64,000 nt of DNA, taken from the NCBI GenBank assembly GCA_042408215.1, contig JAYFMW010000001.1:59627-123626 (forward strand). The letters are read 5' to 3'. The position numbers and the translations under genes were made by a program. A model generated the notes under the pieces. That model saw only the letters and a list, made by a program, of their open reading frames with translations, was not told where the DNA came from and ran no database searches. This stretch comes from Microcoleus sp. (GTDB taxonomy: Bacteria; Cyanobacteriota; Cyanobacteriia; Cyanobacteriales; Microcoleaceae). Below are positions 14,681 to 53,393 of this stretch, one piece after another (positions within the stretch are counted from its first letter, which is position 1; each line of letters begins with the position of its first letter).

Positions 14681-16060
14681 GTGGTAACGCTCTCTAATTC
14701 CTATGTAAGCGGTCGCGACCAAGAGTCCTCCGGGTTCGCTTGGTGGTCTGGTAACGCTCGTTTGATCAACCTTTCCGGCAAACTGCTGGGCGCCCACGTC
14801 GCTCACGCTGGCTTGATCGTTTTCTGGGCCGGAGCAATGACTTTGTTTGAAGTCGCTCACTTTATTCCAGAAAAGCCCATGTACGAACAAGGCTTAATCT
14901 TGATGCCCCACGTCGCTACCTTGGGTTGGGGCGTCGGCCCTGGCGGTGAAGTCACGGATATCTTCCCCTTCTTCGTAGTTGGCGTTCTCCACTTGATTTC
15001 ATCTGCTGTTCTCGGTTTGGGCGGCATTTATCACGCCGTTCGCGGCCCGGAAGTCCTCGAAGAATACTCTTCTTTCTTCGGCTACGACTGGAAAGACAAG
15101 AACCAGATGACCAACATCATCGGCTATCACCTGATTTTATTGGGTGGCGGTTGCTTGCTGCTGGTTGCTAAGGCCATGTTCTTCGGCGGTGTCTATGACA
15201 CCTGGGCTCCGGGCGGCGGCGACGTGCGTATTATCACGAACCCAACTCTCAACCCCGCTGTGATTTTTGGCTACTTGGTTCGCTCTCCTTTCGGTGGCGA
15301 AGGCTGGGTAGTTAGCGTCAACAACATGGAAGACATCATCGGCGGTCACATCTGGCTGGGCCTGATTTGTATCGGTGGCGGTGTTTGGCACATTTTGACC
15401 AAGCCTTTCGGCTGGGCTCGTCGCGCCTTAATCTGGTCTGGCGAAGCTTACCTGTCTTACAGCTTGGGCGCTTTGTCCCTCATGGGCTTCATCGCTTGCT
15501 GCTTTGTCTGGTTCAACAACACTGCTTACCCTAGCGAATTCTATGGCCCGACGGGCCCGGAAGCTTCTCAAGCGCAAGCTTTGACCTTCTTGATCCGCGA
15601 CCAACGCTTGGGTGCTAACGTCGGTTCTGCACAAGGCCCGACCGGTCTGGGTAAATATCTGATGCGCTCTCCTACTGGCGAAATCATTTTCGGCGGTGAA
15701 ACGATGCGTTTCTGGGATTTCCAAGGCCCTTGGTTGGAACCTTTGCGTGGTACTAACGGTTTGGATTTGAACAAAATCAAGAATGATATTCAGCCTTGGC
15801 AAGCTCGCCGCGCGGCTGAGTATATGACTCACGCTCCTTTGGGTTCTTTGAACTCTGTGGGCGGTTTGGCGACTGAAGTGAACGCATTTAACTTCACTTC
15901 TCCTCGTTCTTGGTTGTCCTGTTTCCACTTTGTGATGGGTTTCTTCTTCTTGGTCGGCCACTTGTGGCACGCGGGTCGCGCTCGCGCTGCTGTCGCTGGC
16001 TTTGAGAAGGGTATCAATCGTGAGACGGAAGCGGTACTTTCTATGCCTAACTTAGACTAA
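14681..16060 (+). CDS. psbC: Photosystem II CP43 protein
   Basis: GTG start with GGAGG upstream; [18 protein letters not shown]... Confidence 0.99.
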
Positions 16061-31341: not shown

Positions 31342-31363
31342 TGATTGTTTTGGAGAAATTGCA

Positions 31364-31824
31364 GTCAGCACCCCGCACTCTCTGTAACGGCTTCATGCCT
31401 AAAACTTCAGTTAGTTGACCAGCTATCGTCTTAACTGACTACGTTTTTTGAGTCACGACACCGGGAGAATGCGTAGCTAGTTCCTCGCTCTGTCGTCAGT
31501 GGTTAAACAGTTTTACTCTTAGGTAAGACAGTGCTGCTGACCTAACAAGCTCATTAAACATTGACCGACAAGCTAACATTACCCCGAAAGGGAGGCTCTA
31601 AAAAAGAGCAAACCATTATGCGTACAGGGTGAAAGGTTTGAAGCAGTAATTGTCCTGTTGAAAGTTCATTACAAAAGAACCCCGAACTAAGTAATTCCAA
31701 GGCGGTAAATGTGTAAATATTCAAGGCGGTTTCAACCGCTAGTGTGATGCCCTTCCTCGTAGTCGAAGGGTCGTTTCCCTCTCAGGTCTAAAGACGCTGA
31801 GTTTCCCACTTACCGAGGATTTTT
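31364..31824 (+). ncRNA. HEARO / IscB-type omegaRNA element lacking iscB
   Basis: GTCAG start; TTGACCAGC..CTACGTT..GTCACGACACC..ATGCGTAGCTAGT..CTCTGTC..TAAACAG..ACAGTG..AACATTG..GCTAACATTACCCC; 3' hairpin CTCAGGTCTAAAGACGCTGAG; followed by ATGA. Confidence 0.8.
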
Positions 31825-31926
31825 ATGACTCTTAGCGGAATAATAACTTATTTCGGGCTGTTCGGCGGAATGCTGGGCGTGGCGACAGTGTTGATGTTTG
31901 GTCTGCGGGCTGTCAAACTCATCTAA
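31825..31926 (+). CDS. petL: Cytochrome b6f subunit PetL
   Basis: Manual translation MTLSGIITYFGLFGGMLGVATVLMFGLRAVKLI* (33 aa, single TM, GLRAVKLI tail); divergent from aroB. Confidence 0.88.
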   Translation: MTLSGIITYFGLFGGMLGVATVLMFGLRAVKLI

Positions 31927-41946: not shown

Positions 41947-42263
41947 GGGGCTGTGGCTCAGATGGATAGAGCAAGCGCCTCCTGAAGAATCGGGCACCTT
42001 GGCGGGAAACTCCAGGAGTGAATGTGGTCAAATTCGGTGAAACCTAAAGAGTTAATAGGTTCCTATGACTCTAAGGCAATACCAAGCCAAGCCTGAATTC
42101 ATGGCGATTATGCGATCGCCTACACTTGGAATCAGGAAGGTCTAGAGACTAGACGGCCACCACCTAAAGGCTGCAAGCCCACGGTGAAGGTATAGTCCAG
42201 AGAGTGGGGAAACTCACACAAATCTGAAGCGCTAGGTCGCCGGTTCGAATCCGGCCAGTCCCG
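41947..42263 (+). tRNA. tRNA-Arg(CCU) interrupted by a group I intron
   Basis: Exon 1 41947-41983 GGGGCTGTGGCTCAGATGGATAGAGCAAGCGCCTCCT; exon 2 42227-42263 AAGCGCTAGGTCGCCGGTTCGAATCCGGCCAGTCCCG; cloverleaf closes after splicing. Confidence 0.92.
41984..42226 (+). ncRNA. Group I self-splicing intron, 243 nt, no ORF
   Basis: Upstream exon ends in U and intron ends in G; core elements AAATTCGGTGAAAC (P), AATACCAAGCCAAG (Q), TAGAGACTAGA (R), AAGGTATAGTCC (S). Confidence 0.9.
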
Positions 42264-51166: not shown

Positions 51167-52501
51167 ATGCTGGATTTATTTAGTTCGGGAATCATGTCTC
51201 TGTGGCTGGAGATGGCTGGGGTACGCAGTGTGGGGCTGAATGCTGCGTCAGTTCTGGCTTGGGAAGGAGGAATGCCCGGGTTGGTGTTGGCGGTCGATTT
51301 AGCTGTGGGGGGAGTGCCCTTGGCTAATCCAGATTTGCCCGCAGCAGCGACGGTGCGAGAATTTTTAACAGATTTGAAGGCGAAGGGGCTGATTGAGGGG
51401 AATCAGGGAGTTTGGATGCAGTCGGGAATGGTGCCGCTGGTAAGTCAGCAGGGGACAACGCTGATGCCGGGGGCTTCCCTGACTAAGATTGCGACTTCTT
51501 TGGCGTCCCTGGAAACTTGGGGCGCAGATTATCAGTTTGAAACGCGGTTCCGGGGGACCGGACCGATCGCCCAGGGTGTGTTGCAGGGGGATTTGGTGGT
51601 CAGTGGCGGGGGTGATCCGCTGTTTGTGTGGGAGGAGGCGATCGCCGTTGGTAATGCTCTCAACCAAATGGGTATTAATCGGGTGGCAGGAAATTTAATT
51701 GTGACTGGCAATTTCCGCATCAATTATCAGTCCGAGCCTGTGGCTGCGGGGGAGATGTTGCGGCAGGCCCTCGATGGTCGCAGTTGGCCACCGGATGTGC
51801 AGGCAATTTATTCTAAGATGGCTCCGGGAACTAGAAAGCCGCAGGTGGCGGTGGATGGCGGCGTGATTGCTCGGAAATTTTTACCTGCTTCCCGTTTGTT
51901 GCTGAAGCGTCGATCGCTCCCTTTAGCGGAAATTCTCAAGCAGATGAACGTCCACAGCGATAATGAAATTGCTCAGATGCTGGCCGACAATTTGGGCGGG
52001 GCTAAAATAGTGCAGCAGCAAGCGACTTGGGCGGCGGGTGTGCCGGCGGCGGAACTTCAATTAGTGAATGGTTCGGGATTGGGAGTCGAAAATCGGATGT
52101 CTCCGAGGGCGGCTTGTGGGATGATGCAGGCGATCGGGCGCTACCTTCAGACTACTCCACTGACGATTGCTGACTTATTTCCGGTGTCTGGGCGCGATCT
52201 AGGCACTGTCGAATACCGACACATTCCCCCCTACGCTGTGGTGAAAACAGGCACCTTGGACAGCGTGATTGCCTTGGCTGGAGCGATACCGACGCGCGAT
52301 CGGGGTTTAGTTTGGTTTGCAATTATCAATCGCGGCACGGATTGGGACTCTTTGAGAGCGCAGCAAGATTTGTTTTTGCAAAAGTTGGTGCAGCAGTGGG
52401 GAACCGCACCAACGTTGCCTCTGGCAATGGAGCCCCACATTGACGGCGCGAAACCCGCCTTGGGGGCGGCAAATCGTAGCGATATTTTATTGGGAGGCTG
52501 A
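51167..52501 (+). CDS. dacB: D-Ala-D-Ala carboxypeptidase/endopeptidase (peptidase S13, PBP4)
   Basis: ASLTK (SxxK), SDN, NGSGL, KTGTL. Confidence 0.9.
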   Translation: MLDLFSSGIMSLWLEMAGVRSVGLNAASVLAWEGGMPGLVLAVDLAVGGVPLANPDLPAAATVREFLTDLKAKGLIEGNQGVWMQSGMVPLVSQQGTTLMPGASLTKIATSLASLETWGADYQFETRFRGTGPIAQGVLQGDLVVSGGGDPLFVWEEAIAVGNALNQMGINRVAGNLIVTGNFRINYQSEPVAAGEMLRQALDGRSWPPDVQAIYSKMAPGTRKPQVAVDGGVIARKFLPASRLLLKRRSLPLAEILKQMNVHSDNEIAQMLADNLGGAKIVQQQATWAAGVPAAELQLVNGSGLGVENRMSPRAACGMMQAIGRYLQTTPLTIADLFPVSGRDLGTVEYRHIPPYAVVKTGTLDSVIALAGAIPTRDRGLVWFAIINRGTDWDSLRAQQDLFLQKLVQQWGTAPTLPLAMEPHIDGAKPALGAANRSDILLGG

Positions 52502-52674
52502 GGGAAGAAGTCCTTAGTCCGTAGTCATTAGTCCTTAGGTAGTAGGCAGATTAATGCCCCATTCCCAATTCCCGATGCCCCATTCCCAATTCCCGATGCC
52601 CAATTCCCACAGCATAATCTGAGATTTCGCGCCTGTTGTATGTCACAATTGGGACAGGACTATTGTGCAAGAAG

Positions 52675-53105
52675 GTCAGTAACTCATGTCTAAAGACGCT
52701 GAGCTTGTAAGAGTAATCGAAGCAAGCTGTACTGACCAGCCTCAGACTTTCGAGGTCTACGTTTTTTGAGTCACGACACCTTGGGATGCGTAGCTAGTCC
52801 CCTGCTCTGTCATCTGTAATTAAACAGTTCTAAAGTCACTGGAACAGTGTTGCAGGTCTAACAAGCTCTTAAAACATTGGCGAAGCTAACATTACCCCAT
52901 ACATGGGAGGCTCGTCGATCGAGCAAACCATTACGCGATCGCGGGTTGTGAAATTTGAAATGGTAATTGTCCCATTGAAAGTGCATTACAAAAGCACACC
53001 GAATTGAACAATCCCCCTGTAATGGACAGGGGGATTTCAATCCCCCTTGTCGTTTCCCACGAGCGGGCCGGGGCCGCTGAGTTTCCCACTTACCGAGTTT
53101 TTCTG
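52675..53105 (+). ncRNA. HEARO / IscB-type omegaRNA element lacking iscB (copy 2)
   Basis: GTCAGTAACTCATGTCTAAAGACGCTGAG 5' hairpin; same scaffold motifs as 31364..31824; shared end GCTGAGTTTCCCACTTACCGAG; followed by ATGA. Confidence 0.85.
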
Positions 53106-53393
53106 ATGATCAAACTGCGATTGAAACGATACGGCAAAAAACGCGAGGCCAGCTACCGCATTGTAGCGATGAACAGTTCCACCCGCCGCGATGGCCGTCC
53201 TCTAGAAGAGCTCGGCTTTTACAACCCCAGAAATAACGAAACGAGGCTGGATGTTCCAGCGATTGTCAAGCGCCTGCAACAAGGTGCTCAGCCAACAGAC
53301 ACTGTGCGTGACATCCTTAGAAAAGCCAATGTATTTGAACAAGTCGGAGCCGGAGCCAACCTTGAATCCAGCAACTCAGCAACAGTCGCCTAG
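53106..53393 (+). CDS. rpsP: 30S ribosomal protein S16
   Basis: [34 protein letters not shown]. Confidence 0.97.

Follow-up and report, generated by a model that had tools for sequence, protein, structure and literature searches.

Two ORF-less elements at host start codons

The window, a 64,000-nucleotide stretch of DNA from Microcoleus sp. (host assembly, 7.36 Mb in 30 contigs), carries two small elements on the + strand, each ending where a host gene of the same strand begins. Copy 1 (461 bp, 31364 to 31824) is docked on the start codon of petL (31825 to 31926; Pfam PF05115, E = 1.3e-12), whose ATGA is the transposon target motif, and copy 2 (431 bp, 52675 to 53105) is docked on the start codon of rpsP (5' part, 53106 to 53360; PF00886, E = 7.5e-20). 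Both elements open with the HEARO scaffold of the IscB omega-RNA (RF02033), at 31364 to 31582 with 111.4 bits against a gathering score of 83 and at 52675 to 52895 with 150.1 bits. The left end of copy 1 is the start of its HEARO match in the Rfam scan, a GTCA, and its right end lies just before ATGA, where similarity among 20 aligned copies ceases. In IscB omega-RNAs the guide lies 5' of the scaffold, and by that layout the 16 nt that flank each element on the 5' side (31348 to 31363 and 52659 to 52674) are presumed guides; the letters of the second also abut ATGATC at empty sites in three other species. Elsewhere in the window, Rfam reports IsrR, the antisense RNA of isiA (15089 to 15275, - strand, 160.8 bits), and a group I intron (41971 to 42219, + strand, 57.5 bits).

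What follows HEARO is not iscB. As read from the alignment, positions 31583 to 31609 of copy 1 hold a GNRA hairpin (CCCGAAAGGG), a Shine-Dalgarno-like GGGAGG, and a small hairpin, GGCTC..GAGC, that is specific to the ORF-less class with the domain described below and that covaries, with changes on both sides in 4 of 4 pairs. A leftover start codon comes next in copy 1 (ATG, 31618 to 31620) and opens the short frame ATG CGT ACA GGG TGA (31618 to 31632), and the corresponding codon of copy 2 has mutated to ACG (52933 to 52935). Neither copy has a long ORF, and the longest that start within 90 nt after HEARO encode 10 and 34 aa in copies 1 and 2, respectively, just as the first-pass annotation had claimed in reporting that no iscB ORF follows. 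Instead, a structured domain extends from about 31613 to 31711 in copy 1 and from about 52928 to 53025 in copy 2. The right end of copy 1 (31716 to 31824) contains a subterminal hairpin, CTCAG..CTGAG, at 31781 to 31801 and is shared with other ORF-less copies and with full-length iscB elements, in which it directly follows the stop codon. In copy 2, a consensus scan places a terminator-like hairpin just 3' of the domain (53028 to 53047). From 5' to 3', the element thus consists of the omega-RNA, the GNRA hairpin and former ribosome-binding site, the domain where iscB would be, and the right end.

The host genome supplies the comparison needed to read that layout. There are 70 HEARO matches, 64 of them above the Rfam cut-off, and what follows them was read by eye as full-length iscB (388 to 445 aa) in 18 cases, broken iscB in 8, the domain in 20, another filler in 22, and neither in 2. 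In two of the full-length copies, the right end, which consists of a small GC hairpin, the CTCAG..CTGAG hairpin, and a T-run, comes directly after the iscB stop; the remaining full-length copies have a different right end that likewise stops before ATGA. Because the right end directly follows the iscB stop in full-length elements, the domain, lying between HEARO and the right end, occupies the iscB slot exactly, and the position first assigned to it was correct. The other filler defines a second ORF-less class of 22 HEARO copies (e.g., C14:66098-66311), in which the iscB slot holds different small hairpins, namely, two with CAACCAUA loops followed by a GNRA hairpin. Moreover, 2 of the 22 places in the genome that hold the domain have lost most or all of HEARO. 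At C30:395316-395412 and at a locus called L104, the HEARO part is gone and the domain and right end are kept directly before a host gene; the host gene at L104 is anti-sigma antagonist-like, and its counterpart in this genome also carries an element.

We conclude that each window copy is an ORF-less mini-transposon of the IS200/IS605 type (ISC). Cyanobacterial ISC transposons have a 5' GTCA terminus and an N|ATGA target and insert without duplication (Kapitonov, Makarova, and Koonin 2016, PMC4810608), and HEARO is placed at the transposon end, with mention of gene-less PATEs that encode omega-RNAs (Meers et al., PMC10055086). The window elements resemble PATEs in several respects. No protein gene lies between the ends (longest ORFs, 10 and 34 aa), the ends are shared with protein-coding relatives, and a hairpin similar to the one at the right end lies in the 5' part of HEARO. 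Insertion is site specific and without duplication (N|ATGA), all 20 aligned copies end before ATGA, and a Y1 transposase is available in trans, with 20 PF01797 matches in the genome, 19 of them above the cut-off. The rpsP site, moreover, is empty in 3 of 3 other species examined, where ..GCAAGAAG is joined straight to ATGATC, and the 431 bp of copy 2 (52675 to 53105) are inserted exactly between those two sequences. In a genus-wide search, rpsP matches of other species begin at the right boundary, among the matches listed. The type of element, a gene-less omega-RNA mini-transposon, is already known in outline, and the domain appears to be the new part.

Regardless of class, an ISC/HEARO element stops right before an ATGA whose ATG in most cases starts a host gene. 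Of 56 right ends that a pattern search recovered across the genome, 34 lead into an ORF that begins at this ATG and spans 100 aa or more, compared to 14.7% of 5,000 random ATGA sites. Several of the docked ORFs begin like well-known proteins when read by eye. The start codons occupied include those of essential genes (rpsP, petL, and, by N-terminal reading, fusA and chlB), so that the module would belong to the leaders of host mRNAs with high expression. One rival explanation is that the domain, along with the right end, is kept as a leader element that lends a stability, promoter, or translation signal to the docked gene. The excess of ORFs after right ends agrees with such a role, as do the copies that lack HEARO and still keep domain, right end, and host gene. 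Elements with the other filler and full-length elements, however, dock on start codons equally well, no promoter-like site was found in 52450 to 53150, and the rpsP insertion is recent, being missing from most species of the genus among the matches listed. Moreover, the domain also lies inside introns, where no gene start follows. A leader function is unlikely to account for the domain.

A closed and covarying RNA domain

The part of the domain noticed first is a 54-nt three-way junction of helices P1, P2, and P3, located by sequence, RNAalifold, and pair counts at 31635 to 31688 in copy 1 and at 52952 to 53005 in copy 2. The two copies are as originally described: they are equal in length and share the loops UAAUUGUC and AUUACAAAA and a GAAA linker, and their three stems differ in a compensatory way. 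The motif had also been taken to be the structured unit itself, and here the fold is real but the 54 nt are merely the top of a larger domain. Similarity among the 20 aligned motif-bearing copies extends well past the motif and ends just before ATGA, and RNAalifold, applied to the 16 HEARO-linked copies without large insertions (aligned by MAFFT), predicts 32 pairs, 13 of them with compensatory changes, including two helices, P0 and P-1, outside P1. In P-1, the former start codon and its neighboring letters pair with a GGCGGUA-type strand. The whole is a long stem (P-1, P0, P1, and a conserved 3-by-3 internal loop) capped by the three-way junction, and hardly any variation is seen in the internal loop, where ACA faces AAG, or in the GAAAG junction. 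It is very probable, in our judgment, that the motif is the tip of an independently folding RNA domain of about 100 nt with this anatomy.

Support for the fold comes from pair counts in two alignments, each of which contains related, and hence not independent, copies. Across the 16 in-genome copies, 94.3% of cells form standard pairs, compared to 33.6 to 40.7% when partners are slid, and 16 of 33 pairs are altered on both sides. Shuffles reached the observed value 0 times in 500 on four of five measures and 142 times in 500 on the fifth, further pair types. A larger alignment of 67 distinct sequences (from 75 matches in several genera) was fitted to model R1, which was built solely from the 16 in-genome HEARO-linked copies, so that it leans toward the model in a way that the MAFFT alignment does not. 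There, 94.8% of cells are paired, compared to 30.6 to 44.0% with slid partners, 28 of 33 pairs are altered on both sides, and 0 of 500 shuffles reached the observed value on any of the five measures. The start codon falls within P-1 (pairs 34 to 38 with 238 to 242), and helix 2 is paired in 96.4% of the larger alignment. Covariation that had been seen between two copies thus persisted among 16 and then 67 sequences, with pair counts far above those for slid partners. Together with the HEARO matches, it bears out the proposal of a protein-free OMEGA element with a second RNA domain selected for structure.

Single copies depart from the consensus to different degrees. R1 matched 31593 to 31711 of copy 1 with 106.5 bits and 52908 to 53025 of copy 2 with 104.3 bits. 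Copy 2 alone folds to the consensus, its minimum-free-energy structure being the consensus fold (z = -2.38; 3 of 200 shuffles). The minimum-free-energy fold of copy 1 is not the consensus (z = -0.70), and with a one-base loss in P0 it is a somewhat decayed copy. In 5 of the 20 in-genome HEARO-linked copies, a variant 3' strand does not pair in P1. Copy 2 shows a further variation, as the conserved internal loop is rewritten on both strands (52930 to 52945 and 53010 to 53020), creating a GCGATCGC (HIP1) site, and the overall fold is kept. In four copies, GC-rich inserts of about 25 to 50 nt break the same P2 hairpin loop (C29:75689-75857, C26:114191-114333, C12:36905-37045, and C30:395316-395412), and small repeats similar to these inserts also lie within hairpin loops of other elements.

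The two hairpin loops had been proposed to contact one another through either of two pairings, and only one of them survives. The UUGU/ACAA pairing is kept in 89% of cells; at the last pair, 47 sequences have U-A, 11 have C-G, and 4 have U-G. Most of the C-G pairs belong to intron-linked copies, so the switch from U-A to C-G may be a single event. The alternative, UAAU/AUUA, was rejected, since it is paired in 69% and shows no covariation.

The strand of the fold also stood as first proposed, with 94.8% of cells paired on the + strand and 82.0% on the - strand. The reverse complements of both window copies fold no better than shuffles. G-U pairs make up 321 of 2,154 cells (15% of paired cells), and the fold thus belongs to the omega-RNA sense strand. 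The same count bears on whether the structure acts in DNA, where a fold in the single-stranded form might aid the Y1 transposase. IS200/IS605 elements do move as single strands with end hairpins (PMC4810608 and PMC10055086). A G-U pair, however, would be C-A on the other strand. Moreover, according to the two papers, iscB and the omega-RNA have a sense strand opposite to that of tnpB elements whose ends they share, which makes it probable that the strand that folds is not the one that moves. In addition, the transposase requires only subterminal hairpins, and group II introns, in which the domain also lives, move via RNA. A role in DNA therefore seems most improbable.

The domain is a new RNA by the standards of Rfam, which had been suggested when only two copies were known. 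HEARO matches stop at 31582 and 52895, the domain starts at least 30 nt later and the 54-nt motif about 50 nt later, and the motif is therefore outside the HEARO model; the elements as wholes contain HEARO (111 and 150 bits), and the domain itself falls outside RF02033. Rfam at its gathering threshold gave nothing for the domain anywhere in the window, and a permissive scan (E values up to 10) of 31575 to 31830 and 52888 to 53110 gave only chance-level matches. A remnant of iscB, moreover, it is not, in agreement with the original view. A whole-genome nhmmer profile of the domain gave 23 hits at 22 places, all with E < 1e-7, every one at an ORF-less element and none inside an iscB ORF. A search near domain copies found no IscB-like ORF inside a domain-bearing element, and the few hits were a neighboring small HNH gene and a separate RRXRR element. 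Rfam 15 contains neither the domain nor any record that OMEGA elements and group II introns share it. In the article texts that it covered, a literature search likewise met with no account of a structured element filling the iscB slot or of a module shared in this way, and the passages covered of the Trichodesmium twintron paper do not describe the module.

Spread of the domain and its group II intron relatives

The domain is more widespread than the window suggests. The first-pass annotation knew of only two copies, a count that falls far short, as the profile found 22 places in the host genome and R1 likewise gave 22 matches. Within the family, R1 matched 96 of 144 genomes and 10 of 15 genera, and within the genus it matched 73 of 78 genomes. 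In an even sample of the phylum, matches occur in 16 of 151 genomes, all belonging to the order of the window. This sample understates the range, because an exact-pattern scan of named genomes, which gave at least 115 loci, also reaches Nostocales and others; the matches listed include Microcoleus, Tychonema, Spirulina, Lyngbya, Okeania, Coleofasciculus, and several Nostocales. Eighty pattern loci were fetched with their flanks, and 73 hold the domain by profile; of the other 7, which are chance matches, 6 come from other phyla and 1 from a Nostoc genome.

Outside the genus, the domain is often found in a different kind of element. R1 matches there score 43 to 73 bits (E = 6e-16 to 1.5e-7 per genome), and Rfam finds HEARO beside the domain at 4 of 20 loci of other genera, Intron_gpII without HEARO at 10, and neither at 6. 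Domain V/VI of the intron lies 77 to 227 nt downstream of the domain on the same strand at those 10 loci. The six loci with neither comprise one with a weak HEARO match and, by eye, one decayed intron and four 5'-truncated HEARO-type remnants. Named genomes contributed two further intron-linked copies. Five domain matches in one genome (G118; L092 and L094 to L097) have identical scores, which suggests recent multiplication of an intron, and the one that was checked is an ORF-less group II intron.

Where the domain sits within the intron was worked out by comparison. The intron loci are ORF-less elements of about 915 nt that start with GUGCG, in which, by our reading, domain I closes by pairing CUCGUUCC with GGAACGAG and is followed by a branched domain II and a short domain III; the assignment rests on our reading because Rfam has no model for those parts of these introns. 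ORF-bearing relatives were located by DNA search. One of them is 80.8% identical to an ORF-less copy of the same genome over 569 nt of domains I to III and 90.2% identical over domains V and VI, and its ORF, which stops 12 nt short of domain V, encodes a 503-aa reverse transcriptase that has an HNH motif. In the ORF-less intron, the first part of this ORF survives as a remnant (0 of 300 shuffles), and the domain starts about 20 nt downstream of it. Because the ORF-bearing relative shares the flanks and the ORF-start remnant precedes the domain, we place the domain in intron domain IV, in the place of the ORF. Placement in domain III was rejected by the mapping of the domain I closure, domain II, and the short domain III and by alignment to the ORF-bearing relative. 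Nucleotide BLAST gave no similarity of the domain to the reverse-transcriptase ORF, although the domain might stem from coding sequence that has diverged strongly, and ORF-bearing introns gave no R1 match with filters off (best, 9.9 bits).

Intron-linked and HEARO-linked domains have the same helices and the same unpaired letters and differ by many compensatory changes in the stems. We hold homology of the two to be likely, with good confidence. The earlier statement that the motif cannot be assigned to a family thus needs revision, as ORF-less group II introns carry clear relatives of it in their domain IV. The window copies themselves are not introns. The hallmarks of such an intron, domain V/VI and a 5' GUGYG, are found only with related copies in other genera, and the Rfam scan gave no Intron_gpII match beside either window element. 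Moreover, the domain is absent from the host genome's own nine group II introns, in which nhmmer gave a single weak hit (E = 0.43).

A third setting was found in several named genomes. There, another leader, about 230 nt long and without an Rfam match, stands upstream of the domain (at L216, L224, L225, L177, and L184), and a right end of the type seen above, with ATGA behind it, comes after the domain. The same leader, at positions 2281 to 2481 of locus L057, directly precedes an ORF of the RRXRR family (PF14239, E = 7.7e-35), and it is probably the omega-RNA of another IscB/IsrB-type lineage. In a tally of 164 domain loci by home-made profiles, in which some places were counted twice and which was not a random set, 121 have HEARO just upstream, 22 have intron domain V downstream (15 distinct places), 5 have the third leader, 6 lie too near a contig end, and 10 have nothing. 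A quick tree of the domain, built on 103 columns and with support values not considered, nests HEARO-linked copies of two genera within the intron-linked group and so hints at more than one exchange.

Another conceivable reading is that the domain is a passive remnant, a piece of a group II intron captured once by an element, or the reverse, whose covariation is mere inheritance. Recombination does occur among mobile elements, the sequences on either side of the closed stem are unrelated from one context to another, and copy number mirrors transposition rather than selection on the host. Compensatory changes, however, have accumulated within the HEARO-linked group of a single genome (16 of 33 pairs), pairing of about 94% persists despite sequence divergence, and the retained unit is always the complete closed domain. 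We consider a functionless remnant very unlikely.

Possible roles of the domain and comparison with known systems

Our overall explanation, to which we assign a probability of roughly 0.6, is that a structured domain, with relatives in introns, occupies the vacated ORF slot of non-autonomous elements and, as the tentative part of that explanation, would act as a cap at the level of RNA. The domain would work as RNA and in cis, to the benefit of the non-autonomous element. A compact cap would shut the slot left by the lost gene, the orphan start codon, still behind a ribosome-binding site, would be locked in helix P-1 so that ribosomes do not load, and the fold of the omega-RNA or intron would be held apart from flanking sequence, here the leader of a host mRNA. 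The more specific function, that the cap closes the vacated slot and hides the orphan start codon, we offer only tentatively. A plain hairpin would suffice to hide a start codon, and copy 2 has lost the codon (ACG) and has had its internal loop rewritten, and nonetheless keeps the fold. Moreover, P1 is broken in 5 of the 20 in-genome copies, copy 1 alone does not fold to the consensus, and 22 other ORF-less HEARO elements of the genome make do with a different filler. Finally, strict conservation of the loop and junction letters across three contexts favors something more specific than a cap.

That conservation is the main reason to consider a docking platform, in which the domain would bind a protein, of the host or of the element, or another part of the RNA, such as the upstream GNRA hairpin, that all three ORF-less kinds of element need. 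In HEARO-linked and intron-linked copies alike, the stems covary, whereas the unpaired letters hardly change; these letters make up the 3-by-3 loop, the GAAAG junction, and the two hairpin loops. Moreover, the domain is a compact three-way junction with a loop-loop contact, and the same module recurs in three types of element. IscB/IsrB-type proteins and intron reverse transcriptases, however, are unrelated save for the HNH domain, the internal loop of copy 2 is rewritten, and any resemblance to tetraloop receptors or kink-turns is conjectural. Docking is a strong rival of the cap, if one that we regard with some doubt.

The elements appear to be present in RNA. In RNA libraries from four studies, assembled contigs run continuously from the 3' half of HEARO through the domain and the right end into rpsP, and one bridging contig extends for 767 nt without a difference. 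Such assembled contigs cannot prove a single transcript or show ends and might include DNA carry-over, and they fit a common leader transcript. Upstream of copy 2, tandem short CCCATTCCCAATTCCCGATG-like repeats lie at 52546 to 52627, and in one RNA run the summed contig depth rises from about 7 to more than 800 near 52577, by those repeats, which is a hint at most.

The position of the domain between omega-RNA and host gene also fits a processing signal that would set the 3' end of the omega-RNA and free it from the host mRNA, either as a self-cleaving ribozyme, as an RNase substrate, or as a block to exonucleases. Ribozymes are often found near IS605-type elements, and the long imperfect stem could serve as an RNase III site. 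Models of known ribozyme families (hammerhead, twister, twister-sister, pistol, hatchet, and HDV-like), however, gave no match at E values up to 10 in 31575 to 31830 and 52888 to 53110. A hammerhead reading, in particular, was rejected from the junctions, as their letters do not fit the hammerhead core and both the CUGANGA strand and a U-H cleavage dinucleotide are absent. Moreover, the RNA contigs of the four studies span the domain uncut, although contigs cannot show ends, and a role in setting ends is implausible within domain IV of an intron. Processing is an improbable function, and the cap remains our preferred explanation.

Whatever the function, a wider proposal follows from the three settings. 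A portable and functional RNA module may have moved more than once between IscB/IsrB-type transposons, the ancestors of Cas9, and group II introns, and it may be kept for a common need, perhaps a shared protein recruited in trans. We regard this scenario as speculative and rather less than likely. If true, the module would be a direct link at the level of RNA between OMEGA systems and group II introns. Its presence in introns and behind a second type of leader suggests either that two very different families of mobile elements exchanged RNA parts or that their non-autonomous forms have a common need. It bears on the survival of stand-alone guide RNAs and their use in trans, and on the old proposal of a shared history of IscB and group II introns. 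Moreover, the domain may provide a small and stable RNA fold for the engineering of guide RNAs.

Known systems resemble the window elements in part. Hammerhead and other small ribozymes share with the domain a three-way junction, a GAAA-containing junction strand, and a loop-loop contact, but the domain has no Rfam match, and on reading it lacks the CUGANGA strand and the U-H dinucleotide. ISC transposons agree in their 5' GTCA, insertion 5' of ATGA without duplication, subterminal hairpins, and mobilization by Y1 in trans, whereas the paper that describes them, in the passages covered, treats protein-coding elements and suggests that the HNH domain of IscB came from group II introns, not that an RNA module is shared (PMC4810608). 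HEARO, the IscB omega-RNA, and PATEs are the counterparts of the element as a whole: HEARO is matched in full, each end has a subterminal hairpin of the IS605 type, the target is N|ATGA, no ORF is present, and the Y1 transposases and full-length iscB genes of the genome could serve in trans. The difference is that the HEARO model does not extend to the domain of the window elements. The domain itself has its counterpart in domain IV of ORF-less group II introns, which in introns of about 915 nt from related cyanobacteria holds a homologous domain of about 100 nt after a remnant of the reverse-transcriptase start. The window copies, however, carry no intron parts, and neither the ORF-bearing relative nor the nine introns of the host have the domain.
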